In this document: piece by piece, positions 14,223 through 55,086 of the stretch
How positions within the stretch are numbered: position 1 is the first letter of the stretch
Layout of the letters: every line of letters begins with the position of its first letter
NCBI GenBank assembly: GCA_965216785.1
Contig: OZ244197.1
Location: 2,112,001 to 2,176,000 of the forward strand
Direction of reading: 5' to 3'
DNA: 64,000 nt
Origin: Thermodesulfobacteriota bacterium
Lineage (GTDB): Bacteria > Desulfobacterota_D > UBA1144 > Nemesobacterales > UBA2774
Made by a program: the position numbers and the translations under genes
Notes under the pieces: model-generated
Told to the model about the DNA's origin: nothing
The model's database searches: none
What the model saw: the letters and a program-made list of their open reading frames with translations, nothing else

Positions 14223-14412
14223 CTGCTCTGTCCTCCTAAATAAGAAATTGTGGGTCTTATTATACTATAAGTAGAAAGAAACTAATAGTTGTACGCTATT
14301 GTTGTCCTGTACCCCTTTTGTCAAGCTCGGGTTAAGTTGGAGTTATTAATAGTAAATCCAAGCAAAAAAGGGAGCCGAAGCTCCCTTTTAGGTTATTTTT
14401 AATGCTTGTAAG

Positions 14413-15477
14413 CTATGCGAATATCTTTTTTCTGCGAGCCGCTAAAATACCCGCTATTCCTAAAATTCCAGCCATGGTTAAGAGCCCCCATTCTGACAGC
14501 GTTGGGATGGGGCGTGTAACTCTAACAGGTTGTAGGTCACATACGAAAAGTTCAAACTCGTTCCATTCATAAAGCAAGTTATTAATAGTGATTGAACCTT
14601 CTTCCGGATCCATGGCAAATATCTGAGAACATAGAAAGCCAGCCGCTTCCTCCGGCACGTCCATTTCGAATACCAGGGTATCATAGCCGTCCCCGCCGGA
14701 AATAATGCCCAGTATTTCAGCCCCTGTGCCAACTTTGACTGTGTCATTATCATCATGGGCATTGATAGCCTCTCTATTAGCCGCGTTTCTTCCATCAATG
14801 GTCGCATTACTTATAGATATAAGGTCATCATCTTCGTCAGTACGAATAGGCTGATCGATAGGTTCTGTTTGAGTAATTCTGCCGCCGGTTATGATTATAG
14901 TTTCATTACCTTCGTTTGTTTGAAGGCCGCCATCATCACATGTAAGCTCACCGCCGTTTATATATATCTCATCACTCCCATCCCTAGTATTTATACATTC
15001 GTCACTAGCTGTAATTATTCCATCGTCAATTGTAATCTTTGCTGCTCCCGGGTTAGAGTTTCTGACGCCGTGCTCGCACAGTAAGCTGCCTTTTACCATA
15101 TGGAACTCATCATTGCCGGACCCGAGCTCTATACAATCGGTGCCCGGATCGTTTCCGGATACAGTGCCTCCATTCATTTGAACCTTGTCGTCACCGTCGC
15201 GAGTATGTACAACTTCATCTCCTCCGGCTGAAATGTCCGAGCCGTCCTGAATAGTTACGTCATCAGCCAGGTCGGTTGTCTCAAGCCCATTGTTGTCGGT
15301 CCCGCTGCAACTCACTATCTCACCGCCAGAGGGTGTCATGCCTGTCACAACGCACTGGGCATATGCAGATTGACCGACAAGAAAAAATGATATTGAAAGA
15401 ATAATTGCTACTGCAAAAAGGTTAGATGTTTTAGGGTAAGACAATAGTACTCTAAAAAGAGTATTTATAGATTTCAT
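14413..15477 (-). CDS. IPTL-CTERM surface protein with Gly/Asp-rich beta-roll repeats (paralogue of 40389)
   Basis: G.D.I.I.GG repeats; IPTLSEWG tail; AAGGAGG RBS before MKSIN. Confidence 0.85.
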   Translation of the reverse strand: MKSINTLFRVLLSYPKTSNLFAVAIILSISFFLVGQSAYAQCVVTGMTPSGGEIVSCSGTDNNGLETTDLADDVTIQDGSDISAGGDEVVHTRDGDDKVQMNGGTVSGNDPGTDCIELGSGNDEFHMVKGSLLCEHGVRNSNPGAAKITIDDGIITASDECINTRDGSDEIYINGGELTCDDGGLQTNEGNETIIITGGRITQTEPIDQPIRTDEDDDLISISNATIDGRNAANREAINAHDDNDTVKVGTGAEILGIISGGDGYDTLVFEMDVPEEAAGFLCSQIFAMDPEEGSITINNLLYEWNEFELFVCDLQPVRVTRPIPTLSEWGLLTMAGILGIAGILAARRKKIFA

Positions 15478-15593
15478 CTGTGCTATCCTCCTTAAGGAAT
15501 GAATGCTTAACAAAATCTTACTATACATTAATCATTATTAATAGGGATTAGAGGAATTTCAAGTATATATAGTTCACCCTTATGACAGGCTCA

Positions 15594-28671: not shown

Positions 28672-29562
28672 TCAAACCGGCCGGGCTTGTTTTCTCCTGA
28701 GAGCAACAAACGCGATTATGCCTATCACACCAGCCATAGCTATAAGTCCCCATTCGCTGAGCGTCGGTATCGGGCGCGGCGCGATCTGGTTTAGGAAAGT
28801 ACATTCGGCTACGGAATTGCCGTTAAGACAGGATATTGAGACGCCGTCCGCGAGTAAGCTCATGTCTACATCACCGGAGATGAGCTCGCAAGAGATTGAA
28901 AGCTCCCATCCGAGCGGTACGTCTTCTGTCACGGTAACGGTATTGCCCTCGGAGATAAATAGCTGCTCTAGAGGGTTCTGAGGATCCGATAGCGTGAATA
29001 CCCCGCTACCGTTTCCGCCGAGAGTGAACTCGAATAAAGTATTGTCCGGAGGCAGCGCGTCATTAACAATATCAATCTGGCAGGACGGCTCGTATTCAAT
29101 AATGCATGAACGGTTGGAATTGCAGCTTTCGTCATTCCACTCGTCGCTTGTCTCAAGACAGTTTTCACAACCCTCTTCACCGTTACAGCCGGAATCGTTG
29201 GGCTCGCCATCTGCCCAGGCGGTAAAGATAAACGGCTCGCCTGTTATCCATTCCCAATCTTCGTCGGGTTGGGCCGCGCCTTCTGCCTGCATTCCGCCTA
29301 ACCAACCGGAGCAGCCAAGATCTTGGTTAATGAAGTTTTGTTCCCCGGCATCGGTAACAGTTGCAAGGTGGCCCCGCATATTCATAAAGACCTGATCGGA
29401 CGCGAAGTCCCTCGCGTCAAACCAGTCGCCGCATCCATCAACACACTCGTAATAATGCCCGTTCGCGGGATTCAGTATAGGCGGCATATTGAAACCCGCA
29501 AATGCGGGCGCCGAGATAAGAAGAACAAATAAAAAGGTAAATATCTTAAATATTCTTTGCAT
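28672..29562 (-). CDS. IPTL-CTERM protein with C-type lectin domain
   Basis: GHLATV, WLGG, W.WITGE, W..GEPND, ENC, WND..C; IPTLSEWG tail. Confidence 0.88.
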   Translation of the reverse strand: MQRIFKIFTFLFVLLISAPAFAGFNMPPILNPANGHYYECVDGCGDWFDARDFASDQVFMNMRGHLATVTDAGEQNFINQDLGCSGWLGGMQAEGAAQPDEDWEWITGEPFIFTAWADGEPNDSGCNGEEGCENCLETSDEWNDESCNSNRSCIIEYEPSCQIDIVNDALPPDNTLFEFTLGGNGSGVFTLSDPQNPLEQLFISEGNTVTVTEDVPLGWELSISCELISGDVDMSLLADGVSISCLNGNSVAECTFLNQIAPRPIPTLSEWGLIAMAGVIGIIAFVALRRKQARPV

Positions 29563-29730
29563 TATATCCCCCTTCAAAATTAACGATATCTTTAAACACT
29601 ATACAACAATCTTAAATGTTTAGTCAAGACGTTAGGCATCTTTTGACGCGCCGCTTTATACTGTGGGGATAATGTTAAAATTTGGATTCTGAATAGATCG
29701 TGGAGCGGACTACGGCACAAGGTTCTGCTA

Positions 29731-29848
29731 TGACATTTTATTTGCAGAGCTCTTTTGAGTAATCCTGATGCCTTCTTCCGGGTCGGCATTTGACCGTCTT
29801 GCCGGCGCTCGCTTCTGTCACGGACTTGTTGAAGGCTCCTGGATATAA
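29731..29848 (-). pseudogene. Internally deleted remnant of a paralogue of 30863-31315
   Basis: DNA matches two distant parts of that gene (30856-30935 and 31157-31195) joined directly. Confidence 0.75.
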
Positions 29849-30697
29849 TTAAGCTGTTACCTTTCTTCTTCGGATAGCCACTAGAGCTACTATTCCCAAT
29901 ACTACCGCCATAGCTATAAGACCCCATTCGGAAACCGTCGGAACATTTCTTGCCACAGGCTCAAGACAATTTATAGCGGCAACTTCCTGAGCCGAGAGCG
30001 CTATGTCGTAGACCTGTAAACAAGCGACCGATCCAGGTGAGTTTTCAGAATTATCTGTTACGTCATCGTCACGGAAAAAAATGAGAAAATCGTCATCGCT
30101 TATGACAGCAAAGTCCGAATCGTCTTGGAATGAAAACTGCTGTACACCATTTACATAGCCGACAACGGTTCCGCCAGCATCTCGAGTAAGAACGACCTGT
30201 ACATATACACCGTCGTTAAAAACAATGTCCGTACCAGATGCTTCATCATAAAATGTCAAAACGCCGTCAGTAATTGTAGTTTCTTCTTCGTCTTCTTCAG
30301 CATACAAACCCATGTCAATAACAAGGTTTTTAAAGTCTATAATCTTTTGAAAACTATCAAGAGATAAATCGCTGAACTCAAATAACGCAACTATTGTATA
30401 CACATTGTTAGATATGACTCCAGTGGTAGCCAATCTTAAACCTTCGCCGAAATTGAATCTGAAAACCTGCCGGTTTTCTCCGTTTACAGTGTCAAAAGCA
30501 AATTGACCGGCACCCAAGTCTACAAGGGGAGGGGCCGGGGGTGTAGAGCTTTGAAGTGTATTTTGAAATTGATAGTCACCCGTTAGCTCGGCATGGCTTG
30601 AAGATGTTAAGCCAACAAAAAATAATCCCATTGTAATTATAAATATGACTGACGTAGCTTTTGAAAGCTTCACAAAAAGCTTATTTAATCTAATCAT
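29849..30697 (-). CDS. IPTL-CTERM protein with LamG/concanavalin-like domain
   Basis: VVLTRD....GYVNG, QVYDIALSAQEV; VPTVSEWG tail. Confidence 0.82.
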   Translation of the reverse strand: MIRLNKLFVKLSKATSVIFIITMGLFFVGLTSSSHAELTGDYQFQNTLQSSTPPAPPLVDLGAGQFAFDTVNGENRQVFRFNFGEGLRLATTGVISNNVYTIVALFEFSDLSLDSFQKIIDFKNLVIDMGLYAEEDEEETTITDGVLTFYDEASGTDIVFNDGVYVQVVLTRDAGGTVVGYVNGVQQFSFQDDSDFAVISDDDFLIFFRDDDVTDNSENSPGSVACLQVYDIALSAQEVAAINCLEPVARNVPTVSEWGLIAMAVVLGIVALVAIRRRKVTA

Positions 30698-31363: not shown

Positions 31364-32032
31364 CTACCTGAACACGTTGAATACGCTGCAGGATACCTTG
31401 CCGATAACCATGTTGGGATCAAAGTCCTTCCACATGACTCTGGAGGTCGGGTAGTTCTTGTTATAGGGAATGAGGCTGAGGCCCTGGGGCTCAGAGTAGC
31501 ACTCCCTTACTATGTTTCCCTCGTGAGGGATCTTCAGGGCGTAAAGGCTCCCGGAAACGATGTTCTTCACGCCCGTGTCAATGACGGCTTTAGAGCCGTT
31601 CATAAGGAGCTTCTCCATAGAATCGCCGTTTACCTGCACTACGAGCGAGCTTTCGGTGTAGAGCTCTCTGGGGATGACCGCCGTGTCTACGGGCTCTGTC
31701 TTGGAGAGTTCTTCCGCGGAAGCCCCGGCAGCCAGAGAGAATACGTTTACCTTGATGAAATTACCGTGATGAGAGTCGTCTTTTTTCCCCGAGGAGTCGG
31801 TAATCTTAAGGGTTTGAGAAGACTGAAAGGGGTCGCGCTTAAGTATGTCGAGCGATATATTGTCTCTTTCGCACAGCACGGTAACCTGATCAAAGAACGG
31901 GAAGGCGTTTCGCTGTTTCGCGTTTGAGAGCGCGCCTCTTCCTACACCCAGCGCGTCTGCTACCTGATAGTCCTTTGTAAAACCCTTAATGGCTTTTATT
32001 GTTTCTATTATCTCTTCGACTGTCTTTCTCAT
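31364..32032 (-). CDS. Phage CI/LexA-like repressor (HTH + S24)
   Basis: VADALGV..GALSN HTH; AG site; V.GDSM; the expected catalytic VK appears as VR. Confidence 0.85.
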   Translation of the reverse strand: MRKTVEEIIETIKAIKGFTKDYQVADALGVGRGALSNAKQRNAFPFFDQVTVLCERDNISLDILKRDPFQSSQTLKITDSSGKKDDSHHGNFIKVNVFSLAAGASAEELSKTEPVDTAVIPRELYTESSLVVQVNGDSMEKLLMNGSKAVIDTGVKNIVSGSLYALKIPHEGNIVRECYSEPQGLSLIPYNKNYPTSRVMWKDFDPNMVIGKVSCSVFNVFR

Positions 32033-40388: not shown

Positions 40389-41411
40389 ATGAGAACATTT
40401 CTAATAGCAGGCTTGGTAACTGTAGCTTTTAGTTTTGGTTTGAGTCAAGTTGCGAGCGCGGTTTGCGTGCAGAACGGCAATACGCCCGAGGGTGGAAACA
40501 TAATCAACTGCCCGGGGCCGGTTCAGAACAGCCCGCTTAACACCGTAACCGTGCCTGGCACAACAAATCTGGCCGATGAAGTGAATATTCCCGAAGGCGG
40601 CGGACTTGATGTTGGTGCAGGCAGTGCCGTTGTAACAGATGACGGCAATGACAGGGTTACTACAAGCGGGGATGTAACAGGAGACGAAAGTGCTATCTTT
40701 ACGGGGCCTGGTGCTGATACAATTACTGTAAATGGGGGGAACTTGATTGCTGGTAGCCAACAGGCAATATGGTCAGGTGTGGGTGCAGATATAATCACGA
40801 TCAATGGAGGCTTTCTGGAGGGAGAAAATTCCCAAGCTATATTCTCTGATAGCGGAGATGACTTGATTACCGTAAATGCGGGCACCTTGGTAAGTGGTGG
40901 GAGTCAAGCCATGTTTACATCTGGCGGGAACGATATGGTTATCATAAACGGCGGTGTTCTCGATGCTTCCAATACTGATACTCAAATTATTTTTACAAGC
41001 AGTGAAAATGACACAGTCATATTAAACGGTGGTACTTATCTAAAGGGTAGTGATCAGGCCATCTTTTTGGGATCTCAAAATGACACTCTGACCTTTGGCG
41101 GAGATATTGACCTGGACGGATATGTTAATTGCGGCTCAGATTTCGATACTATCGTTTTTGCGATGGAAGTGCCGGAGGAAGCTGTGGGATTCTTCTCATC
41201 TAGAATCAACGGTGCCGACCCTGCTGGAGACAGCGTCGTTATTAACGATATTACCTATGAGTGGCAATTCTGCGAGCTGCTGGTGGCGGACCTTAACGGC
41301 GTCCGGGTAGCGAGACCGATACCTACGCTTTCCGAGTGGGGGCTGATCGCGATGGCGGGAGTGCTGGGGATAGTAGGGCTCATGGCTGTGAGAAGGAGAG
41401 TGGCTGCTTAG
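40389..41411 (+). CDS. IPTL-CTERM protein with Gly/Asp beta-roll repeats
   Basis: G.D.ITVNGG repeats; IPTLSEWG tail. Confidence 0.88.
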   Translation: MRTFLIAGLVTVAFSFGLSQVASAVCVQNGNTPEGGNIINCPGPVQNSPLNTVTVPGTTNLADEVNIPEGGGLDVGAGSAVVTDDGNDRVTTSGDVTGDESAIFTGPGADTITVNGGNLIAGSQQAIWSGVGADIITINGGFLEGENSQAIFSDSGDDLITVNAGTLVSGGSQAMFTSGGNDMVIINGGVLDASNTDTQIIFTSSENDTVILNGGTYLKGSDQAIFLGSQNDTLTFGGDIDLDGYVNCGSDFDTIVFAMEVPEEAVGFFSSRINGADPAGDSVVINDITYEWQFCELLVADLNGVRVARPIPTLSEWGLIAMAGVLGIVGLMAVRRRVAA

Positions 41412-41500
41412 CGGGAAATAGGATTAAAAGATTAGATCCGAACATCTGTTAGAATTTATGATAGTTAAAGCTTTATAGTAAACTGATTAATGGAGTGACG

Positions 41501-41980
41501 ATGAAAAACTTTAGCCTAGTTTTATTAATTGCAGCTCTGTTCATACCAACTTACAGTTACGGATATGCTCAAGCGCCTCCTCCTCCTTGCCCGTGCGATA
41601 CAGAAGAATTGCCAGGTGGTCTGACGGGTGATGAAATCATTGATATAGTCTGTCCCAATGGAAAGCTTGGAGTGGATAGTGAGTTCGTTCTGATACCCGA
41701 AGAGGTAAGAGTTTCCTTAGCTAGCGCGCCGAGTACAACGTACCGTACAGACGAACCCAATGTCGATGATTTCTTTTGTGAAATAAATACTGATGGAGTC
41801 TTACCCATAACATTAGAAATCACTGAGCAACAATATGAACTATGCAGAGCGCGCCTGATCATCGGCTGTGGATTGAACATGAAGCCAGTTCCTACGCTGT
41901 CTGAGTGGGGGCTGATCGCGATGGCGGGAGTGCTGGGGATTGTGGGACTCCTGGCTGTGAGAAGAAGGGCCGTTGCTTGA
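41501..41980 (+). CDS. Small IPTL-CTERM protein
   Basis: Signal peptide, Cys-containing domain, VPTLSEWG tail. Confidence 0.85.
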   Translation: MKNFSLVLLIAALFIPTYSYGYAQAPPPPCPCDTEELPGGLTGDEIIDIVCPNGKLGVDSEFVLIPEEVRVSLASAPSTTYRTDEPNVDDFFCEINTDGVLPITLEITEQQYELCRARLIIGCGLNMKPVPTLSEWGLIAMAGVLGIVGLLAVRRRAVA

Positions 41981-44293: not shown

Positions 44294-45034
44294 CTACGCC
44301 TTGAGCGCGTTTCTTCTTCTCTGCGCGTAGATGAGCCCGATTATGCCGAGCGCCGCGACCATGGCGATCATACCCCACTCTGACATGGTCGGGATGGGTC
44401 TTGGTCCGGTGCCGAAATATACGACCGACACGCCCGGGAAAATCCCTGAATCAGTACCAATTTCAGGGGTTATTCTAATGGAAGAAATAGGCTCTCCGGA
44501 TGAAATCCCGAGGAAAACATTAAAAGCGCTTGTCGCATCTACTGTGGTTGATCCTATCGCCATGTCATTTGGGGCGAATATTTCGACCAGTAGAGTTTGG
44601 GAGCACGCAGGGCCACCTTTAGCTGTACACCCAATATTTAAACCGACTACATTATATTTTTCTTTCAGGAAGTCCACAATGAAAATGCCTATAGCATTAT
44701 CAACCAATGAATTATACGCATTAGCGAGTCCTGGGAAATTGGCCCCGTACAGCCTTAAGCCCCCGAATGAGCCACTGAATCGAAGACCCTGCTTTATGAC
44801 TCCGGGTGAGACACAATCATTGTTACTCTCTGTGGTAAACGGGGAGGGGCAAACTTTTGTTTGGCCAGGACTAATACTTGCCGCTGAAAAATCCTGCACC
44901 TTCAGGCCCGGGTATTCGGCCATAAACGCCGCTTTATCGTTAGTCAGCTCATAATTGCCGGAAAATGCCTGTACGGATGTGAGTAGTAAAACAAAAAGTG
45001 GTAATACAGCAATAGTCGTTATTGTTCTTAACAT
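44294..45034 (-). CDS. IPTL-CTERM protein (paralogue of 54331)
   Basis: IPTMSEWG tail; shared C.SP......C..PG.I..G..F block. Confidence 0.85.
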   Translation of the reverse strand: MLRTITTIAVLPLFVLLLTSVQAFSGNYELTNDKAAFMAEYPGLKVQDFSAASISPGQTKVCPSPFTTESNNDCVSPGVIKQGLRFSGSFGGLRLYGANFPGLANAYNSLVDNAIGIFIVDFLKEKYNVVGLNIGCTAKGGPACSQTLLVEIFAPNDMAIGSTTVDATSAFNVFLGISSGEPISSIRITPEIGTDSGIFPGVSVVYFGTGPRPIPTMSEWGMIAMVAALGIIGLIYAQRRRNALKA

Positions 45035-45149: not shown

Positions 45150-46703
45150 TTAAGACTCGTTCTCGGCCATTTGCTTAAGGGTCACGCGGTCTACCTTGCC
45201 GGTGGGATTGAGCGGTACCTCTTCCAGGAATATTATTTCCTCGGGCGCTCTGTAGCCTATTCTGTCACGCGCGAAGAAGATGAGCTCTGTCGCGGTGGGA
45301 TTCTCTGCGCCTTCTTTTATACTGACGTATGCCCTTACTTTCTCGCCGTGCATAAGGTCGTTAATTCCGATTACTCCCGCGCTCTCAACGGCCTGGTGCT
45401 CTAGGAGAGTTTCCTCTACTTCCTGGGGAGATATGTTAGAGCCGTCGTGCACGATGATCTGCTTTTTGCGGCCCCTGAACCAGAGGTAGCCGTCTTCATC
45501 CGCCTTTACCATGTCGCCCGAGTCGAACCATCCGTCTACTATAACCTCTTGGGTAGCTTCCGGGCGCTCCCAGTAGCCGGTCATAATGCTGGCGGTTTTT
45601 ACCCAATTTGTCCCTTCAATTCCGGCCGGGACTTCATTGCCGTCATTGTCCTTTATCTTCATGACGTATCCGGGAATAGGTCTTCCTATGGAGCCTTGCT
45701 TTATGAGTCCGGAAGGGGGGTTCATGGTGCCGAGCCCCATTTCGGTAGAGCCGTACCCCTCGTCGATGACAAGGCCCGTGAGCTCTTTGAACTCGCGCTC
45801 AAGCTCGAGGGGCACTTTATCGGCACCGGCGCGCATGAGTCTAAGGCTCTTGAAATCGTCCTTCTTCGCGTCGTGGTCCCTTACTACCCGGAAGAGGGCG
45901 GCGGGGATCATCGTAAGTACGGTAGGCCTCTCGCTGCGCATAAGCTGGAGCAGCTCGTCAGGCTCGGTGTTTGTGGGCACAAGCGCTCTGCAGCCAAGGG
46001 ACATAGCGCTGAGCGAGAACAAAAATCCCCCGAGGTGGGAGTGTGAGGAGTCCGCCACCATTACGTCTTCATGCGTAAGCTCAAACCCCTGCGCGCAGCT
46101 CGCGAACATATACTCGAGCGACCCGTGGGTATGCGTCACGCCCTTTGACGGACCCGTGCTGCCTGAAGTAAAGAATATAACGGTAGGCCAATCGGGCGCT
46201 GGGGAGGGAAGCGATACCCCGCCCGGCTCATTTTCCAGGAGGCTTTCAAACCGGACGTACGGCTCGTCTTCCGCCTCAATGCTGATGATGCCCAGGTGGA
46301 GGTTCCGTATTATCTCGCTCTCATCGGCGTGGTGAAGCCTTTCGTCGTGGACAAGGATAGTTTTTGCCCCGGAAACGTTGAGGGCGTGCTCTATCTGGGG
46401 GGTGTGGTAACGGTAATTGAGCGGTACCGCCACGAGCCCTGCTTTGAAGCACGCGAGGTAGTGGATGAGAAGCGCGGGGCGGTTGGGCATGAGCGAGGCG
46501 ATGCGGTCGCCTGGCTCAAGGCCGTGAGCAAGATAATTACCTGAGAGATTATTGCTTGCCTCCTCGACCTCGCGCCATGTGCGGCTCTCATCAAGCGACA
46601 CCAGGGCCGGGTCGTCCGGTCTGGTCTCCAGACCGCGCTTTAGTATGTTGAGTACAGCGACAGTTTCTTTTAGATCATCTCCGTAAATCGGCATTTCGCT
46701 CAC
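45150..46703 (-). CDS. Class I adenylate-forming enzyme (acyl-CoA ligase)
   Basis: FTSGSTG.SKGV, GYGSTE, SGD, GR.K, P..PTGKV. Confidence 0.93.
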   Translation of the reverse strand: MSEMPIYGDDLKETVAVLNILKRGLETRPDDPALVSLDESRTWREVEEASNNLSGNYLAHGLEPGDRIASLMPNRPALLIHYLACFKAGLVAVPLNYRYHTPQIEHALNVSGAKTILVHDERLHHADESEIIRNLHLGIISIEAEDEPYVRFESLLENEPGGVSLPSPAPDWPTVIFFTSGSTGPSKGVTHTHGSLEYMFASCAQGFELTHEDVMVADSSHSHLGGFLFSLSAMSLGCRALVPTNTEPDELLQLMRSERPTVLTMIPAALFRVVRDHDAKKDDFKSLRLMRAGADKVPLELEREFKELTGLVIDEGYGSTEMGLGTMNPPSGLIKQGSIGRPIPGYVMKIKDNDGNEVPAGIEGTNWVKTASIMTGYWERPEATQEVIVDGWFDSGDMVKADEDGYLWFRGRKKQIIVHDGSNISPQEVEETLLEHQAVESAGVIGINDLMHGEKVRAYVSIKEGAENPTATELIFFARDRIGYRAPEEIIFLEEVPLNPTGKVDRVTLKQMAENES

Positions 46704-46874
46704 CTACCAGGTCGTTCGCCATGCTACTTTTATACACCATAGTCATGTGAAGTTCAAAATCCCCGCCGGGGAGGGTGGGCTATACGTCTTGCAGTGTCCT
46801 ATTCCGTTACGGAATCAGAAAGATTGTGGGGGGAAGAATTTCGATAGGTAGATGGCTAAATTAGTTTCCGGAAA

Positions 46875-47162
46875 TTATTTCTCAATGGCTCTTAGCACTG
46901 TTTTTGCGTCTGTATCTATTATCTTTAATAAGGTCTGAGCCGGGCCTTGGGGGACTCGTTTTCCTTGCTCCCATTGCCTCAAAGTTGAGAGCGGTATGGA
47001 GAATGATTCTGAAAACTCCCGCTGAGTCATTTTTGTTTTTTTTCTGATCCCGGCTACGTCCATGGCTGTGTATCTCCAAACCCTTGCGCCGGTCTTTTTG
47101 CCCTTTTTCCATTCAATCGCTTCCTGAGCACCTTTTTTGATTGATTCGAATCTTTCAGTCAT
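46875..47162 (-). CDS. XRE-HTH antitoxin (HigA-like)
   Basis: TQ.EF....TLRQWEQG.R.P.GPA..LL. Confidence 0.88.
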   Translation of the reverse strand: MTERFESIKKGAQEAIEWKKGKKTGARVWRYTAMDVAGIRKKTKMTQREFSESFSIPLSTLRQWEQGKRVPQGPAQTLLKIIDTDAKTVLRAIEK

Positions 47163-47164
47163 TG

Positions 47165-47503
47165 TTAACTCCCTTTTAAAATTGTAGCAAGCTTTGAAAG
47201 CTCGTTTCTTTCGGCTTTGGTCAAATTATCTTTCTCGCCCTTACCGAATATATCTACTATGTGAACTTCTTGGTCCCTAGTTACAAAAAAATGTATCACA
47301 CGAACCCCACCGCTTTTTCCTCTACCACTTATACCCGCATACCTTAGTTTTCTAAAGCCCCCTGTGCCTTGAAGTAAGTTTCCTGATTTTGGGTGAGCAG
47401 CAAGTATGTTGGCTATTTCCTCCATATGTGCTTCATTTAACAGTTTCCCCGCTCTTTTTAAATAGTTCGGGTGTTCGATAACTGTTACGAGAAACTTTTT
47501 CAA
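47165..47503 (-). CDS. RelE/HigB-2 family toxin
   Basis: GTGG.RKLR....GKSGG.RVI..F..K.EK.NLT.AE. Confidence 0.9.
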   Translation of the reverse strand: MKKFLVTVIEHPNYLKRAGKLLNEAHMEEIANILAAHPKSGNLLQGTGGFRKLRYAGISGRGKSGGVRVIHFFVTRDQEVHIVDIFGKGEKDNLTKAERNELSKLATILKGS

Positions 47504-47587
47504 TTATTAGAGTACCTCAGTGAGTTACTTTTTGCAATAGACATATATTAAGTGGTGGTTTATAGAATGCTTTCGTGAGTTATCCCC

Positions 47588-48235
47588 TCACACGTTCTGG
47601 AAGATCCAGCGGACGCGTCCGACGACGAGGTTCTCGCTCATGTCGTCGAGCGGTATGGAGTAGTCCTCGACCATCTTGTTGTCGCTTCGGATGATGATCT
47701 CGTTTGGTTTTATCTCAAGGCGCTTAACTACGTAGCCCTCGTAAGGCAGATGCAGGCAGTAGATGGCGCTGCTGACCACCTTTTTATCGTTCGAGTCGAA
47801 TCCAACATAGGCGCCGTTTACGATGGTCGGGTACATGGAGTCACCCTCTACCTTAAAGCCGTTCGTGAAATTGCGCACAAGCTTTGAGGGAAGGGTGACG
47901 CGCTCTATGGGCTCTGCCTCTTGGTTCTCCAGCGGGTTCCCCGCGCCTGCAAGCTCCCATATCTTGATCTCTAGCAGGTCGCCGCTCCCGCCCATGACGT
48001 TTGAGATGTCCGGGAGGAACATATCGCCCTGGCCCCGGCGAAGCCACCTGGGACTGACGTTATATATCTTCTCGATGACCTTAAGGAAGTGATCGGGCGG
48101 ACTTGTGCGTCCTGCTTCCCAGCTGAGGATGGTGTTGAGCGATTTGCCCACGCCCCTGCCGAATTCTTCCTGCGTCAGGTCGAGTGCTTCTCTTATAAGT
48201 TTTATTCTTCGTGCTATTTCAATATTGTGAACCAC
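47588..48235 (-). CDS. Phage CI-like repressor (XRE HTH + S24 peptidase); start GTG 48235 or 48253
   Basis: LTQEEF..WE.G; AG site; VEGDSMYP, VVKRL. Confidence 0.93.
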   Translation of the reverse strand: MVHNIEIARRIKLIREALDLTQEEFGRGVGKSLNTILSWEAGRTSPPDHFLKVIEKIYNVSPRWLRRGQGDMFLPDISNVMGGSGDLLEIKIWELAGAGNPLENQEAEPIERVTLPSKLVRNFTNGFKVEGDSMYPTIVNGAYVGFDSNDKKVVSSAIYCLHLPYEGYVVKRLEIKPNEIIIRSDNKMVEDYSIPLDDMSENLVVGRVRWIFQNV

Positions 48236-48350
48236 TTTGGCCCCCTTTTTCACAAATCTGTGAAATAATGTGTTGACATATTCCCAATTCTGTGATTATA
48301 TTATACATAAAGAATATGACATTGACAATACTAATACACAATATTGTGAA
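48217..48350. promoter_or_regulatory. Lambda-like immunity region: four TCACA-N4-TGTGA-type operators and a rightward promoter
   Basis: TTTCACAAATCTGTGAAA (48248-48265) plus variants at 48217, 48281, 48335; TTGACA at 48273 with AT-rich -10. Confidence 0.75.
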
Positions 48351-48485
48351 TTGCAAGTCTTTTTCTGGGAAATACAAAGGATGAGCTTAACTACTAAAAG
48401 AGAAAATATCCAGCAGAGGGGAAAAGATTTCACCCCCACCTTTAATACTCTTCCTTTAAGAGGAAGAAAAAAGGATAACGGCGGG

Positions 48486-48953
48486 ATGATTAAAAAAGGG
48501 GATAAACAGATCATGGGAAGAATCGAGCATATAACGACACAGCAGATAATAGGGGAATGGGGGAGCATAGACAAGTTCGCGTTATCGCATGGGGTGAGCC
48601 CGGCTTCGACGAAGATGGTGATATATGTGGACGGGGCAAAGAGCAGGCCGGTAGAGGAGGCTATGAGGAAGTACGGCTATTTGAATTTGCTCCGTTTTGA
48701 GAAGGAACTGAGGAAAAGGGGTCAGACCTTCTCGGGCTATCTTGCGGAGGACGGGCTTAATCCTGTGGAGTTGATTGAGACGCTGAGGATGAAGGACGCG
48801 CACCCGGAGGTGGTGTCGGGACTGAAAAGGGACGGCATCTGGGGGCTACTGGAAAGGGGACAGGGGCGAGTGCACCGCAGCGATGACCTTGGGGACAGGC
48901 CGGAGCGCAAAGCGCGATCGGGGAGCAGGAATAAAGTTAGAGCGAGGGCATAA
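48486..48953 (+). CDS. Cro/Ner-like DNA-binding protein, possibly two HTHs
   Basis: Divergent from CI; GSIDKFALSHGVS HTH-like segment; C-terminus reads through hairpin repeats. Confidence 0.6.
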   Translation: MIKKGDKQIMGRIEHITTQQIIGEWGSIDKFALSHGVSPASTKMVIYVDGAKSRPVEEAMRKYGYLNLLRFEKELRKRGQTFSGYLAEDGLNPVELIETLRMKDAHPEVVSGLKRDGIWGLLERGQGRVHRSDDLGDRPERKARSGSRNKVRARA

Positions 48954-49028
48954 TGCAGGATGACAACAAAAAGAAAATGACAAGTTTGGTTGAAATTTTT
49001 GGAAGAAATACAAGTCAGGAGGTCGGAA

Positions 49029-49283
49029 ATGAAGTTATCTAAATTTTTTAAGTATGGGAGCTATTTTGTTTTGATTTTTGGCTTTTTGTATGTTTCATGG
49101 CACCTGGGCAGGGCTTTTGAGAAAGACGGGGCCTGGGGAGATGCGGCGGCGGTCAGGACGGTTGCCGCGTGCCCGGAGGTAGATGAGCTGAAGCGGGTCT
49201 ACGAAGAGGTGCTCAGGGAGCTTGAGGAGCCCACGCCGAAGTCTGAGTGGAACACCAGGTATATGGAGTTTACGAAAAGATAG
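49029..49283 (+). CDS. Small single-TM protein
   Basis: AGGAGGT RBS; one TM. Confidence 0.65.
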   Translation: MKLSKFFKYGSYFVLIFGFLYVSWHLGRAFEKDGAWGDAAAVRTVAACPEVDELKRVYEEVLRELEEPTPKSEWNTRYMEFTKR

Positions 49284-49284
49284 G

Positions 49285-49440
49285 GGTTGGATCCGTGTAT
49301 CCGACTGCACCCGGTTTCCCCGCACTATTCCATCCTTCTTGGTAAACGGGAAACCGGGGCTGCACTCCTACAGAAACGGTCCCGGCCGCTTAACGCTTTG
49401 CGGCTGCCTATCCGCAGAAAAGGCCGGGACTTCTTTTTTG
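49285..49440 (+). terminator. Three-hairpin structure ending in a terminator-like stem
   Basis: GGTTGGAT/ATCCGACT; CCCGGTTTCCC/GGGAAACCGGG; GTCCCGGCC/GGCCGGGAC-TTCTTTTTT. Confidence 0.65.
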
Positions 49441-49443
49441 GTG

Positions 49444-49640
49444 GGGGCAAAGGCGAGCGCAGTACAGCGATGCCGGGGAGTTAATCAAAAATGGGGACGG
49501 AGGCGAGCGTTTTAGTGCGATGCCGGGGAGTTAATCAAAAATGGGGACAGAGGCGAGCGTTTTAGTGCGATGCCGGGGAGTTAATCAAAAATGGGGACAG
49601 AGGCGAGCGTTTTAGTGCGATGCCGGGGTATTAATCAGAA
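49444..49640 (+). repeat. Four 50-bp tandem hairpin units
   Basis: AGGCGAGCG at 49451, 49501, 49551, 49601. Confidence 0.95.
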
Positions 49641-49657
49641 GCGGGAAAGGGATAAAA

Positions 49658-50749
49658 ATGGGACGATTGAGACAGAAACAGGAGATCTGGGGCGAAGTGC
49701 TGACTGACAAGGGATATATGAGAGTGCCGAGGGCGCTGAGGCTCAAAAGGGCCGAGCTTGGGATAAGCAATAATGAATATGCAATATTGCTTGACTATCT
49801 GGACTATTACACTTACTGCGGCGGCCAAAACCCCTACGGGCACCTGGCTCAGGTGAACGGGGTGAGCGAGAGGACTGTGCAGAATACGCTCGGCAAGCTG
49901 GCGCAGAAAGGGCTGATCGGGAGGATCGTGAAAAAACACCCCAGCGGAAGGACCAAGGGGGTCGTTTTCACTATTGAGCCGCTGCTCATAAAGCTTAAGG
50001 GTAGGGTGAAAGATCTTTCACCTACAGAGGGTGAAAAAAACTTCACCTACGAGGGGGAAGAAACCTTCACCCCTAATACTAGAGAAGTAGGTAACAAGAG
50101 TAGAGATAGTAAAAAAAGCTCTCCCGAAGCCCTGCCTGCGGGAGAAGCTGCGGCTAAGCATTCTTATTCGAATGATACTTTAGGGAACTCACTCAGAGAA
50201 ACGAGAGAGCTATATGCCTTGTCGGACGCTGAGACTGGTCCTGAAAACCAAAAGGCCCGGGGACGTAAGAGGAAGAGTAATTCAAAAGACCCTTACAACT
50301 CGACCAGGTGGTACAACGAAGTGTTTTCGGAGATTTACAAAGAGGCTTCGGGGCAGCCCGTGCTGACGGGGGGAAGGGAGTACGGGGCGGCCAGGACCTA
50401 CTTTTCAAGGCTAAGGGAGCTGAACCCTTTGCTCGGCGCAGAGGAGATATACGAGCGGGCAAGTGACGGGGCGCGCTTTATGCTCGAGTCGCAGCTAAGG
50501 GGAGGGGTGTTCGGGTGGATGCACTGCCCGCCCGACATATGCATGCTGTCGGGTCAGGCTCAGGCCGTTGACTATCATTTGAGGAAAACGGTTATAGCGG
50601 GCACGGCAGAGCAGAAAGACTCAAAACCAAAGCAAGTGAAAATTTCCGGAGCCAGAGAGCTCGGGGAAAAGGAGGCTTATTATGCGTCAGAAGAGATCAC
50701 AAGAATTTACGGGGAGCTCAAGGGGCTTCGGGGAGCCAAGGGGCAGTGA
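49658..50749 (+). CDS. Phage-type replication initiator with DnaD-like N-terminal wHTH
   Basis: GY..VP..L....ELG.S..E..ILL..LA...GVSERTVQ..L..L..KGLI.R..F.IEPL..KL; internal iterons. Confidence 0.7.
   Translation: MGRLRQKQEIWGEVLTDKGYMRVPRALRLKRAELGISNNEYAILLDYLDYYTYCGGQNPYGHLAQVNGVSERTVQNTLGKLAQKGLIGRIVKKHPSGRTKGVVFTIEPLLIKLKGRVKDLSPTEGEKNFTYEGEETFTPNTREVGNKSRDSKKSSPEALPAGEAAAKHSYSNDTLGNSLRETRELYALSDAETGPENQKARGRKRKSNSKDPYNSTRWYNEVFSEIYKEASGQPVLTGGREYGAARTYFSRLRELNPLLGAEEIYERASDGARFMLESQLRGGVFGWMHCPPDICMLSGQAQAVDYHLRKTVIAGTAEQKDSKPKQVKISGARELGEKEAYYASEEITRIYGELKGLRGAKGQ
50005..50071. repeat. Three palindromic iterons GG(T/G)GAA-N6-TTCACC (putative ori)
   Basis: Units at 50005, 50030, 50054 followed by an A-rich tract. 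Confidence 0.7.
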
Positions 50750-51560
50750 GCGGCAGGTGTCGGAGTTTTTAAGGCGCGGGCAGCGGGCGTACCCGGAGAT
50801 ACGGCGCCGCGATAAAAGGCTTTTGGAAGAGGCGCTTGATTTTCTCTTGAGCGCCGAGGGAATAAATGACCCCGAGGGGACGCTTAAGTCGCTCTTTCAT
50901 GTGTATGAGGAGATAGACCCGTACGCGGATTATATAAAGCCCGGAGAGAGGGAGTTTTTCCCGGCACATAAGCGCGAGCGGACGCTCGAGCGGTTCCTGG
51001 AGGGATTTAAGTACATTTACTACATCCTGCTCAGGGCCCAGGAGAGGCTTTATCTCGCCAATACGTTTGGAGTGTTCTGGGAGCGCTGCGCCGAGTATCT
51101 TCAAAAGTGCGGTTACAAGAACAAGTATATAGATGGCGTATGTGGTAAGGATTCTCTATTTTACAGGCAGAGCTTTAATTACTGGCGGAGTGAGTTTAAG
51201 GACGAAGAAGAGGGGTTTTTGGTGATGTTCGCCTACTTTAAGGCTTGTTTCGGGATAGAGGGGAACGACGTTTACTGCTCGGTCGCGAACAGCCGAGAGA
51301 CTACGTATGACTGGAGGCGTATGAAGGCTTGTTTTGAGAAGCTACGGGACTCTGCAGTAAAAGAGACTGTAGTGCCAGCGCCAAAGTACGAAGAGTGGTC
51401 TGAGAAAAACAAAAGGATGATCCGGCAGAGGATAGAGGCCTACAAGAGGGAGCGCAGCGAGGAGATAAGAAAATCTGAGCAGGTGCTTGAAAATATCAGG
51501 ATACGAAACGAGAAAGAGGGGCATGGGCAGTTTGCGGCGGCAGGCAGCGCACATGGTTAG
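50682..51560 (+). CDS. Hypothetical protein in the helicase-loader position
   Basis: GGAGG RBS, overlaps the initiator end; no Walker motif seen. Confidence 0.7.
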   Translation: MRQKRSQEFTGSSRGFGEPRGSERQVSEFLRRGQRAYPEIRRRDKRLLEEALDFLLSAEGINDPEGTLKSLFHVYEEIDPYADYIKPGEREFFPAHKRERTLERFLEGFKYIYYILLRAQERLYLANTFGVFWERCAEYLQKCGYKNKYIDGVCGKDSLFYRQSFNYWRSEFKDEEEGFLVMFAYFKACFGIEGNDVYCSVANSRETTYDWRRMKACFEKLRDSAVKETVVPAPKYEEWSEKNKRMIRQRIEAYKRERSEEIRKSEQVLENIRIRNEKEGHGQFAAAGSAHG

Positions 51561-51771
51561 AGAGATTTTCGGGGTTTCGGAGCGTATAATATGCAGCGGT
51601 AACGGGGAGTTGCGGCTATTTTTGAAAATAATAGGTTAATTGTGAAAAGTTCGGGTATAATATTATATTAGCAGTTACTGTATCCGAATTGTCCTGAGAA
51701 TAGAAAAGGGCGGCTCGGCTGACAAGTTGTTAAGCTGAAGTCAGGATATGAAGCCAAGGTAAGGTAAAAAC

Positions 51772-52041
51772 ATGAGAGCAAACTATTATCACGAGCGTCT
51801 GGGTATTACATTTCGTATCATAGGTCTTCTTTTTGAGGACGAGAGGTACGAAATCTATCATGCCCGGAACAAAAAGTATGACCGGGACCTGATTCTCCAC
51901 TTTCCTAAGACCGGAGAAGGCCGGAAGTACAACGTCCCTAAGGTGAACTTCGAGAGGCTTGCAGCCGGGACGACGAGCAAGCCGCCAAAAGAAGTCAATC
52001 TGCCGTGGGATAACAAGTCCGAGAGGGCTAAAGGGCACTAA
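51772..52041 (+). CDS. Hypothetical protein
   Basis: AAGGT RBS, 89 aa. Confidence 0.6.
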   Translation: MRANYYHERLGITFRIIGLLFEDERYEIYHARNKKYDRDLILHFPKTGEGRKYNVPKVNFERLAAGTTSKPPKEVNLPWDNKSERAKGH

Positions 52042-52538
52042 GCACGCACGGGGATAGAGGCGGTCCTTTGACTGCACGCTCACCCTGATCGGGGGATTTC
52101 TGCGATGCGGGAGAAGGGATAAAGTCAGGGGCTAAGGCAAACCCTGTCGATTGCATCCGCTTGTGCCTGACCACAAATAAACTTGTTTCTGTAGAGTGAA
52201 TGAAGGGGTGTTTTTTATCCTAGCCGGGAGGGCTTTGCTTTTTCAGCCTGAAGACCGCGGGACCGGGAGCATATAAGCCCGGGGGCTGTAGCCGCTGCGG
52301 GGAGGGGAAAGCGCCCGGGATCGGGAGTTCTTATTTGGGTATGTTCAGAATGGTACTCCAAGGCGGAGCTGCGTCCGATCTTCCCGATGGCATGAAGCAG
52401 GTGGAAGCATACGGTAGAGCAAAGGTGTGAAGTATTTGTCGTTTTGGAGTACAGATAGGCGCTGTAACAGTTGATGTAGGAGTCGAGTCGAACGAGGGCC
52501 GGTTGTTTTAGGGTAAGCACTTATTGAAGGAGGGGATT

Positions 52539-53459
52539 ATGACTTATGACTTCGAGTCTCTCAGCTGTCCGATGTGCGGCGGGGAGCTTATATATTCTGA
52601 GGGTACGCACGACCTTTGCTGCGCAAAGAACAAGTACGAGCTTTCGAGTATGGAAATGGGCAGGGGCGGCCCTTCGACTGCGCACTGTGTGCGCGCTCAG
52701 GGTGAGCGGGGGATTTCTGCGATGCCGGGGAGGGAAAGAAGGAAGGATGAGATCCCGGATCGAGTCCGGGATGACAAAGAAGAGAGGGATAAATTTGGGG
52801 ACAGAGGCGAGCGCAGTGCAGCGATGCCCGCAGGAATAAAATCAGGGGACAGAGGCGAGCGTTTTAGTGCGATGCCTGCAGGTATAAAATCAGGGGACGG
52901 AGGCGAGCGCAGTGCAGCGATGCCGGGGAATGAATTAAACAAAATCGGCAGAGCGCTTCATGAGCCCGGGGCAGGATACGGGAGCGCGGGAAGTAATGGT
53001 GAGACACAGGGTGAATCGAGCGCCCCAAATTCCGGGTCTACACAAGAGACGCATGTTGGAATGAGTAGGCCGCATGCGAGCAAAAGTGATTTGAATAAAT
53101 CGAGTGGATGCTTATTCGCCGTCTCTTTTACCGAGAGCGGGAGGCACGGGACCCTGTGGAGCATCAGGACTGTGCACGGGGGCACGAATTATTTTTCGCT
53201 CATGAGACTAATGGACAAGATTGAGAAGCGCCAGAGGAGGGGCGAGCCTCTTGCCGCGAACGTCCCCAACCTGCCCAGGAAGGTGGAGCGCTCTAAAGAG
53301 TGTAAGCTGGCCTTCCGCTACAGCCTCGAGGTCGAGGACCTGTATTCAATTAAATACAGCTCGGAGACAGTGGACAAGCTGGCCATGTACTACGGGCTGA
53401 CTGAGCCCGACATCAGGCACATTCAGGCCGCGGAGATCGGGGGAGATCAGGGGACATGA
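52539..53459 (+). CDS. Hypothetical protein: CxxC N-terminus, repeat-derived linker, C-terminal domain (may be two genes, second from 53061)
   Basis: AGGAGG RBS; CPMCGG; in-frame repeats. Confidence 0.5.
   Translation: MTYDFESLSCPMCGGELIYSEGTHDLCCAKNKYELSSMEMGRGGPSTAHCVRAQGERGISAMPGRERRKDEIPDRVRDDKEERDKFGDRGERSAAMPAGIKSGDRGERFSAMPAGIKSGDGGERSAAMPGNELNKIGRALHEPGAGYGSAGSNGETQGESSAPNSGSTQETHVGMSRPHASKSDLNKSSGCLFAVSFTESGRHGTLWSIRTVHGGTNYFSLMRLMDKIEKRQRRGEPLAANVPNLPRKVERSKECKLAFRYSLEVEDLYSIKYSSETVDKLAMYYGLTEPDIRHIQAAEIGGDQGT
52749..52775. repeat. REP-like GAGATCCCG..CGGGATGAC; copies at 55772-55799, 56256-56304, 57589-57615, 58111-58138
   Basis: Recurrent hairpin with GATGAC end. Confidence 0.8.
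52797..52928 (+). repeat. Three 48-bp tandem hairpin units
   Basis: GGGGAC at 52797, 52845, 52893; same core as the 50-bp array. Confidence 0.93.
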
Positions 53460-53599
53460 AGCAAAAGAGAGCGTGGGCGGATACCATCTGCTTAGAGTGC
53501 AAATAGAGCGGTTATTCAGGGTGATTAGTAGTCATGAATTGTATGGATAAAGCCCGTGGATATGTCATAATACTTATATAAACAAACGAGTGAGGAGAC

Positions 53600-54187
53600 G
53601 TGATGAAGAGAACCTACACCTTATATATAGCGGCGGTAATGATGACACTCAGCATATTCTCGTTTGGTTGTAATAAGCAGGGCTCGGATCCTGTTTCGGA
53701 GTCCGCGGCGGATCAGCTGGCTAAAGGGCAGGCGCTTGTGGAGGAGTGGAAATGCAATTACTGCCATTCACCGGAGGTTATGGGTCCTGAGGGTAAGGCA
53801 ATCCCCGATCCGGACAGGCTGCTTTCGGGACATCCGGCGGACGAGGAGATCCCGGAAATACCCGATATGATTATGACATCGCCCGAGTACATGGAGTTTT
53901 TGGACAACCTTGACTCTACAGTGTGGGCGACCGACAACAAGATTGTGTTCACGGCCAACCTGACTCCGGACGACGAGACGGGGATCGGCGCCTGGACTGA
54001 GGAAATGTTCATTGCCACCATACGCTCGGGCCAGCACCGGGGGGTGGGCAAGAGGCTCAAGTACCCGATGCCGTGGCAGGAGCTCGCGGAGCTTGACGAC
54101 GCGGAGCTTGCGGCCATATACGTATACCTACAGAGCGTTGAGCCTGTAAGTAATAAAGTCCCTGAGTCGATAGTTCTTTTTAAGTAA
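53600..54187 (+). CDS. c-type cytochrome lipoprotein
   Basis: Lipobox SFGC; CNYCH; ANLTPD.ETGIG.W; PMPW. Confidence 0.9.
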   Translation: MMKRTYTLYIAAVMMTLSIFSFGCNKQGSDPVSESAADQLAKGQALVEEWKCNYCHSPEVMGPEGKAIPDPDRLLSGHPADEEIPEIPDMIMTSPEYMEFLDNLDSTVWATDNKIVFTANLTPDDETGIGAWTEEMFIATIRSGQHRGVGKRLKYPMPWQELAELDDAELAAIYVYLQSVEPVSNKVPESIVLFK

Positions 54188-54330
54188 CGCGGTGAAATCC
54201 GGAATGGGCGGAGTATAGACTTTTACGGCTTCGGGACACCGGAAAGTATTTCCGTAGAGAAAAATGAGTGTTGCAAATTTTTAATAATTACAGTACATTT
54301 GTGTTAATAGTTAATGCAAGGAGTGTGCAT

Positions 54331-55086
54331 ATGAAGATGAGCGGTTATAAGCCATCTCTTTTAAGCGCAGTTTTAATTATCGCGGTTTTACTTGTATTGC
54401 CGTTGACCCCGGCTTTCGCACAGGTTGACTTTACCCCGAGCGAGGGGGAGTTTGTTCTGGCAAATCCACAGGTTCTGGAGCAGAATTTTCAGTCGGGCAA
54501 TGTGGCTCCGGGGGAGCTTGAGAGCTGTGACTCGCCAGTGAACCTTGACTCGGACGGTGATTGCTTTAACCCGGGAGATATATTCCCCGGTATTCAGTTT
54601 GACTCTATTCCCCCGGGAGATATGAACCTCGCGGGCAGTTTCTGGAGCGCGAACCAAAACCCTATGAACGCTCTTACGCCGGACGGCTCCACTCAGTCTA
54701 TGGAGATCACTTTCCCGGATAACGCTATAAACGCCGCCGGGCTTACCTTGGGCTGCCTGGATGACAATGGCGGTTGTATTGGCGACCTGGTGGGTGTTGA
54801 CGTATTCGGGGCGGGCGGCGAGCTATTGGGCTCGACTCAAGCTTTTGTATCGAGTCAGTTTAATACGTTTGTAGGAATTACGTCCGTGGAGATTATAGAA
54901 AGAATAGTGATTAGCGACGCAAACCCGCAGACAGTGAGCTTTAGAGGACTGAGCAGAGTGCTGTACCCGCTGCAGGATGAAGTTGATATTCCGACTCTGA
55001 GCGAGTGGGGGCTGATTGCGACAGTGCTGGGGCTGGGAATTATAGGGCTCTTTGCTATACGCAGAAGGGCTGCTGCCAGAACATAA
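54331..55086 (+). CDS. IPTL-CTERM protein
   Basis: Signal peptide; IPTLSEWG tail. Confidence 0.85.
   Translation: MKMSGYKPSLLSAVLIIAVLLVLPLTPAFAQVDFTPSEGEFVLANPQVLEQNFQSGNVAPGELESCDSPVNLDSDGDCFNPGDIFPGIQFDSIPPGDMNLAGSFWSANQNPMNALTPDGSTQSMEITFPDNAINAAGLTLGCLDDNGGCIGDLVGVDVFGAGGELLGSTQAFVSSQFNTFVGITSVEIIERIVISDANPQTVSFRGLSRVLYPLQDEVDIPTLSEWGLIATVLGLGIIGLFAIRRRAAART

Follow-up and report, generated by a model that had tools for sequence, protein, structure and literature searches.

What a phage-type switch and replication gene set may do in a chromosome that holds no integrase beside it is the question raised by positions 46,875 to 53,459 of the window, the 64,000-nucleotide stretch of DNA analysed here (C1:2112001-2176000 of a 3.12-Mb genome in a single contig). 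This region, called the module below, comprises a CI-type repressor and a divergent operon with a DnaD-like replication initiator (rep); those of its genes that go by numbers (50682, 51772, 52539 and 53061) are named after the start positions of their open reading frames (ORFs) in the window. In the reading that we favour, at about even confidence, the module represents the early half, with the switch and replication genes, of an integrase-free prophage and the likely stress-triggered run-off origin and activator of a cluster resembling gene transfer agents (GTAs), which lies 69–110 kb downstream in relatives. What was observed directly is the order of the genes, their inheritance and selection, the link between the module and the virion cluster, and the deletion of that cluster here. 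The genome, G000, is one of three g1 genomes (G000, G001 and G002), and the comparison set consists of 32 genomes of the same family (uncultured Dadabacteria) and 28 genomes outside it.

Phage ancestry and descent of the module

Judged by its homologies, the module is of phage origin. G023:C225 is a complete prophage; besides genes for integrase, recombinase, terminase, portal, capsid and tail, it carries homologues of CI, the membrane ORF, the C-terminal domain of rep and 50682 in the module's order, and an IMG/VR contig (locus L080) contains the same rep–50682 pair. In these temperate siphophages of the same hosts the homologues of CI, the rep C-terminal domain and 50682 show 27–42% identity, while the G023 prophage differs from the module by its integrase, its recombinase and an uninterrupted set of virion genes whose portal and capsid belong to other families. 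The first-pass annotation had noted neither an integrase nor an attachment (att) site, and the searches bear this out: no match to a tyrosine integrase was found in C1 2.03–2.57 Mb, no serine recombinase nearby, and no integrase in 87 stretches (1.29 Mb) around the module and virion loci of the family; no tRNA lies near the module, and no common flank word of at least 10 nt forms an att-like repeat. The integrase and att site of an active temperate prophage or satellite are missing, and, measured against the GTA criteria of PMC9662315, the layout is that of an element endogenised over several loci without excision machinery, here two loci 69–110 kb apart.

At least some part of the module is present in 26 of the 32 family genomes (a count of any orthologous part, tallied over several separate searches). 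CI, the cro-like gene, the membrane ORF, the initiator, 50682, 51772 and 52539 keep a constant order and are essentially single-copy, and the flanking gene families are common to several genera. A tandem copy in G019 was considered as active amplification and rejected, since it is diverged (86–94%) and represents an old duplication. Five of the six genomes without the module are incomplete or fragmented, and the sixth, the small near-complete G008, has a lone 51772 only.

The module genes are under purifying selection. The ratio of nonsynonymous to synonymous substitutions (dN/dS; median of within-genus pairs with 0.05<dS<1.5, copies with stops or less than 75% cover left out) is 0.045 for CI, 0.057 for 51772, 0.077 for the cro-position gene, 0.11 and 0.09 for the N- and C-terminal parts of the initiator, 0.18 for 50682, and 0.21 for both the membrane ORF 49029 and the C-part of 52539, a range of 0.045–0.21 to be compared with 0.034 for recA at similar dS. 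In a tree of four concatenated module genes from the 17 genomes carrying all four, g2, g3 and g5 are each monophyletic and branch in the order of recA, and the distances at fourfold sites follow those of recA (rho 0.88, Mantel 0/2000, 14 genomes). This is the pattern of vertical inheritance and co-diversification, with which the capsid tree is compatible yet weakly resolved, and not the patchy, horizontally spread one of an active prophage or satellite. The earlier suggestion of a domesticated element agrees with this family-wide presence, purifying selection and vertical inheritance, while the strain-specific, neutrally evolving decayed prophage named as its alternative is contradicted by synteny, dN/dS and the recA-like tree in the relatives.

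The virion cluster of the relatives and its stub in this genome

No virion genes had been seen by the first-pass annotation, which is true inside the window; 69 kb downstream of the module, however, lies a 1.8-kb stub (C1:2230072-2231871) comprising a membrane ORF (mem2), a 157-aa ORF, terS and the N-terminal 72 aa of terL, and ending at a dispersed repeat. The truncated terL was missed by Pfam Terminase_6N and found by phrog_38, and no match to a portal or capsid was obtained anywhere in this genome. At the same site, beside the same EamA genes, G021 carries a 32.8-kb cluster in the order terS–terL–portal–scaffold–capsid–tail tube–tape measure–endolysin. The full set of caudovirus-like particle genes is present in relatives, and the four stub items are all that is left of it here. 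The capsid is 89–92% identical in nine of the 32 relatives, from four genera (dN/dS 0.028), and terL, portal and tube were found in G009. In all four genomes with both loci on one contig the virion cluster lies on the strand of rep, 69, 73, 86 and 110 kb away; the genes between the loci are colinear in G000, G004, G018, G021 and G032 (three genera), and in G021 the distance from CI to the lysis genes is 144 kb. The proposed check for separate GTA-like capsid clusters was thus positive, and what is new here is an orthologous virion and lysis cluster of the relatives, linked to the module and mostly deleted in this genome. Moreover, a compact remnant in G008 (L054:9957-15328) holds CI, a DnaD-like rep, a homologue of the 157-aa ORF and a split terL in about 5.4 kb, and because the 157-aa homologue and terL follow directly after rep there, the two halves may originally have formed one block. 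Six IMG/VR records (L109–L114) are pieces of the virion cluster with capsids 90–92% identical; no match to the early module was found in the stretches of them examined.

Some relatives carry variants of the cluster. G007 (L159, C15:662000-681999) has no head or terminase genes and a conserved tail tube, chaperones and tape measure, a possible tailocin-like derivative. In G005 (L157, C1:2280000-2299999) and G032 (L158, C26) tandem variant tape-measure genes are interleaved with Cys-rich membrane ORFs on the opposite strand, an array that looks, by its gene layout, like polymorphic toxin–immunity or exclusion cassettes; one such opposite-strand Cys-rich membrane ORF persists beside the stub here (L062:15992-16600).

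Nowhere else in the genome do predicted exported proteins make up so large a share as in the 200 kb around the module (0.48 vs 0.27, as scored with a crude signal-peptide pattern). This agrees with the surface-gene-rich surroundings described before and with the zone of surface or secreted genes typical of run-off replication (ROR)-type agents. IPTL-CTERM proteins are common in the genome, and nine of the 39 IPTL-CTERM genes fall in these 200 kb; those in the window lie at 13164-15528, 28672-30697, 40389-41980, 44294-45034 and 54268-55086.

Run-off replication, packaging and transfer are deduced from this anatomy, from established lambdoid biology and from the GTA of Bartonella (BaGTA), and under the favoured reading would proceed as follows. 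On DNA damage RecA* would trigger the self-cleavage of CI, opening the rightward operon. Replication would then start in situ at the iteron origin, without excision, driven by the initiator and probably also by 50682, and the flanking DNA would be amplified. The particle genes would be turned on by a late regulator (52539, 51772 or the 157-aa gene that precedes terS), and pieces of the amplified zone, with its many genes for exported proteins, would be packaged into the heads. Since the virion cluster is deleted in the present genome, the packaging step is impossible in it and the module would be an orphan, kept either since the loss is recent or since CI repression or immunity may still matter.

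Components of the module

Features of the module and of the adjoining toxin–antitoxin (TA) pair in window coordinates (HTH, helix-turn-helix; wHTH, winged HTH)
Feature	Position	Strand	Remarks
HTH antitoxin, accessory	46875..47162	-	Pfam HTH_3, NCBIfam NadS
RelE-like TA toxin, accessory	47165..47503	-	Pfam RelE E 6e-6
CI-type repressor	47588..48253	-	HTH_3 + Peptidase_S24
Operator cluster, 3–4 imperfect palindromes and divergent promoter-like sites	48216..48350	.	
cro-position protein	48513..48953	+	start 48513 set by alignment
Small membrane protein	49029..49283	+	homologue in complete prophage
Conserved non-coding element, candidate attenuator or terminator	49335..49440	+	upstream of initiator
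Four copies of 50-bp dispersed repeat	49437..49641	.	
Phage O/DnaD-like replication initiator	49658..50749	+	wHTH, linker, conserved C-terminal domain
Three 24–25-bp iteron-like repeats, predicted origin	50002..50075	.	inside initiator linker
Helical protein 50682	50682..51560	+	overlaps initiator end
89-aa lineage-restricted protein (51772), most conserved unknown	51772..52041	+	
Four-Cys zinc-ribbon-like protein (52539), helical C-terminus	52539..53459	+	alignment

CI is 64–83% identical across the family, and its residues A102-G103-A104-G105, S139 and K177, the intact AG/Ser/Lys set recognised by the first-pass annotation, are invariant in 16 of 16 orthologues; it is predicted to be RecA*-cleavable. 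The operator cluster also proved real as a conserved feature: operator-like 16-mers at 48249, 48281 and 48335 and a weaker one at 48216 are placed around a TTGACA at 48273, and these sites are kept in 17 genomes of six genera. They form the only pairs at most 150 nt apart among 44 genome-wide matches to a consensus taken from the same sites, which makes this count partly circular. Two more S24-domain CI-like paralogues lie within 65 kb of the module (window 31364-32032 and C1:2099191-2099580), each 27% identical to the module CI, while their S24 parts share 54% identity. The TA pair was correctly called by its Pfam and NCBIfam matches; it is accessory, though, and lies outside the conserved module, since among 28 stretches searched both genes recur in G009 only and the antitoxin also in G001. 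Its G+C content is 0.417 vs 0.52 for the module.

The divergent operon opposite CI runs 48513, 49029, 49658, 50682, 51772, 52539, and ordinary host genes lie at both ends, as had been seen before. The gene described earlier as Cro-like is a conserved ORF at the cro position, found in 21 of the 32 relatives with 73–86% identity over full-length matches; its protein has no match in the domain and protein-family libraries searched, and the name rests on position. The non-coding element ahead of the initiator consists of a short hairpin, an invariant GCACTCCT box and a long stem, in this genome with a U-tract (~49380-49440), and the stem covaries, with compensatory pairs across 18 sequences. Rfam at E<=1 gave zero matches over 46500-54000, this element included, and of the terminator assigned here the stem and U-tract were confirmed, but the terminator scan did not flag them. 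The adjacent “hairpin array” turned out to be a dispersed repeat that folds weakly and occurs at about 30 sites of the genome (15 clusters with a stricter cut-off); 12 relatives have a ~145-aa ORF in its place. This 48–50-bp repeat family is abundant in G001 and G002 too, occurs in-frame inside gene 52539 and breaks short-read assemblies.

Library matches of the initiator are weak (DnaD_N, E 0.003; PHROG replication initiator, E 9e-7). Its iteron-like repeats, at 50005, 50030 and 50054, are the only triple among 13 genome-wide matches. Thus both the DnaD-like initiator and the iterons proposed earlier were found, the origin being a prediction from sequence, and by this anatomy the chromosome would hold the phage-derived origin and initiator of a ROR-type system. 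The initiator search matched 28 of the 32 relatives, the weak matches representing a separate replicon. Their rep family (12 stretches) was rejected as a part of the module, as it goes with ParA and catabolic genes on another replicon. Twelve relatives share that second replicon (wHTH rep, ParA and thiolase/decarboxylase-like genes; L045–L053 and L057–L059), in many cases on small contigs, and nothing in the present assembly matches its rep.

50682 is found in 21 of the 32 family genomes and in none of the 28 outside the family. Its homologue comes after rep in two complete or near-complete phages, and in G012 (L038:256-2010) the initiator and 50682 share one frame of 584 aa, either a real fusion or an assembly indel; by this arrangement 50682 is likely a partner of the initiator. 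Its predicted structure (mean predicted local distance difference test, pLDDT, 72) gave no clear match in PDB, BFVD or a wide aligner, the best Z of 7.1 being to generic helical bundles, and the atlas look-alikes of 50682 and 52539 all score below 0.83. 51772 has 35 homologues in all. 52539, with 42 homologues, has four conserved cysteines flanking a long variable insert, which here contains three repeat copies (52791-52934), and is a candidate late-gene regulator. The model of a compact 52539 homologue (pLDDT 69) reached a best Z of 3.6, a PDB profile search gave E>=0.09, and a counterpart of the Q-like antiterminator BrrG, sought with the same model, yielded no clear match. Of the three ORFs left uncharacterised by the first-pass annotation, 50682, 51772 and 53061, the last is the C-terminal part of the gene starting near 52539.

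Relation to known systems and rival explanations

The comparison with Bartonella made at the outset has become closer than proposed, because a separate capsid cluster exists in relatives. In BaGTA a plasticity zone contains both the ror and the bgt genes, inside one segment of 80 kb (PMC6899734), BrrG activates the capsid operon (PMC6899734; 10.1101/2024.11.20.624540), and the BaGTA-ROR is described as strictly maintained and is induced in a subpopulation (PMC6899734). Common to BaGTA with its ROR (brrA–G) and the present system are an integrase-free phage-derived origin lying apart from the capsid, packaging and lysis cluster (roughly 80–110 kb), surroundings with many genes for surface or secreted proteins, and vertical inheritance. 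They differ in that the host lineage here is unrelated, the switch is a lambdoid CI/S24 one with operators, the virion cluster was repeatedly lost, and possibly one prophage was split rather than two combined (G023 and G008 hold homologues of both halves in single elements). The module is not filed as BaGTA, because its two loci are not strictly maintained and the likeness observed is one of layout. PBSX of Bacillus subtilis offers another parallel by its own features, those of a species-wide domesticated phage that is DNA-damage-inducible and packages host DNA (PMC8347963); it is one contiguous block of about 33 kb, whereas the early and late halves here are separate, 69–110 kb apart. Outside Bartonella, run-off replication from remnant phage genes has been hypothesised for a ROR-type GTA of gut Oscillospiraceae (Pelethomonas; 10.64898/2026.07.08.737213), where a particle-fraction peak was reported without a clear GTA cluster, while here there are a clear cluster and a phylogeny. 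Among the titles and abstracts listed for Dadabacteria with gene transfer agents or prophages, subscription papers and supplements lying outside the search, none concerns this element.

Several observations weigh against the favoured reading. Virion parts were found in 15 of the 32 relatives and not in 17 (a tally over several searches, with many relatives fragmented); some of these absences may be binning gaps (the G004 contig ends just before the site), and the remnants in G003 and G018 are visible only on inspecting the site itself. The deletions differ, with a stub only in G000, the head lost and the tail kept in G007, and fragments in G003 and G018, so both loci are not strictly maintained as in BaGTA-ROR. 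Branch dN/dS is no higher in head-less lineages than in intact ones, which fits either a recent loss or a particle-independent role. On the origin side, rep of G003 has no wHTH, G005 has a different initiator and no 50682, G013 has no 52539, G008 retains the lone 51772, and the iterons are recognisable in 10 of 15 sequences and unrecognisable in five of five of genus g2; the module is eroded less than the virion cluster, yet eroded. The dN/dS values are biased low by the copies excluded from them, and nothing in the structure comparison backs the late-activator role of 52539. Read depth adds to this. In four runs of uninduced bulk DNA from at most three samples (X4 and X1 are one sample, which may be the source), per-contig means, which give no copy number, were for the module and a control stretch (C1 2.77–2.79 Mb) 134–141 vs 167–248 in X4, 43–47 vs 52–77 in X1, ~6 vs ~8–9 in X5 and ~10 vs ~8–10 in X6, with no peak at the module. 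The in-situ amplification expected by the first-pass annotation was therefore not seen in these runs without mitomycin C, depth being at or below the control in three of the four and about equal in the fourth. Flat depth excludes strong constitutive amplification only, because BaGTA is induced in a subpopulation. A test for replication skew at fourfold sites gave too much noise for a reading.

The missing peak also speaks against a particle-independent amplifier, in which the module, no longer in need of the virion genes, would increase dosage or recombination in the exported-protein zone. That idea draws on the module's presence in 26 of the 32 relatives vs virion parts in 15, on the divergence between G000 and G002 (51772, dN 0.010/dS 0.43; 52539 C-part, 0.040/0.83), on strain variants in the coding sequence of CI and 50682 past the N-terminus, synonymous in three of three among those listed, and on the three g1 genomes, in which no virion genes were found apart from the stub here, although G001 and G002 are only 80–82% complete. 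As the ORFs of the stub have stayed intact in this genome, which suggests that the loss is recent, and head-less G003 has also lost the DNA-binding domain of its initiator, we regard such an amplifier as improbable; the stand-alone role first proposed is unsupported so far, the module looking like half of a two-locus system. Quite unlikely, too, is a grounded prophage in slow decay, with CI kept for immunity or for silencing lethal genes and the rest lingering with no transfer benefit. At least four different virion-cluster deletions, one of which ends here at the dispersed repeat, the local erosion of rep and iterons and the existence of related temperate phages all fit it, but conservation is not that of CI alone: rep, 50682, 51772, 52539 and the capsid have dN/dS <=0.21 at a genus-level dS of 0.2–0.7, and neutral decay is unlikely because neutral remnants would not outlast saturating synonymous divergence in six genera.

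The module might also serve as the SOS switch for a defective phage of the PBSX-like killer-particle or tailocin type, with particles that kill related strains and carry DNA incidentally. A tail, nevertheless, needs no origin 70–110 kb off, no toxin domain was identified, and strong purifying selection acts on terminase, portal and capsid in the genomes that have them (terminase and portal on one pair each), which makes this explanation unlikely even though head-less G007 keeps its tail tube, chaperones and tape measure at 51–83% identity, the tape-measure variant arrays of G005 and G032 resemble toxin–immunity cassettes, and PBSX itself is mitomycin-inducible, kills relatives and packages 13-kb pieces of host DNA (PMC8347963).

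The favoured reading, that of an early prophage half serving a distant GTA-like cluster, can be extended to the family in a form that we hold tentatively, with rather less than even confidence: Dadabacteria may have independently evolved a Bartonella-style targeted GTA from one prophage split by ~100 kb of exported-protein genes, with an SOS-type switch that sets off run-off replication and particles that favour the spread of that zone, and non-producers like this genome may have dropped the particle genes while keeping the switch and replicon under selection. In the literature consulted, Bartonella is the only lineage for which GTAs with run-off replication are established, and one gut lineage has been proposed as another. 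If true, the present case would be a second, family-wide one in a distant uncultured lineage, a convergence on an origin upstream, capsids downstream and variable surface genes between. Clusters of this kind can end up in virus catalogues as viral contigs, and the six IMG/VR records may be host DNA. The family would hold natural producers together with several independent non-producers, so that the persistence of GTAs despite cheaters would be testable in it by comparison.

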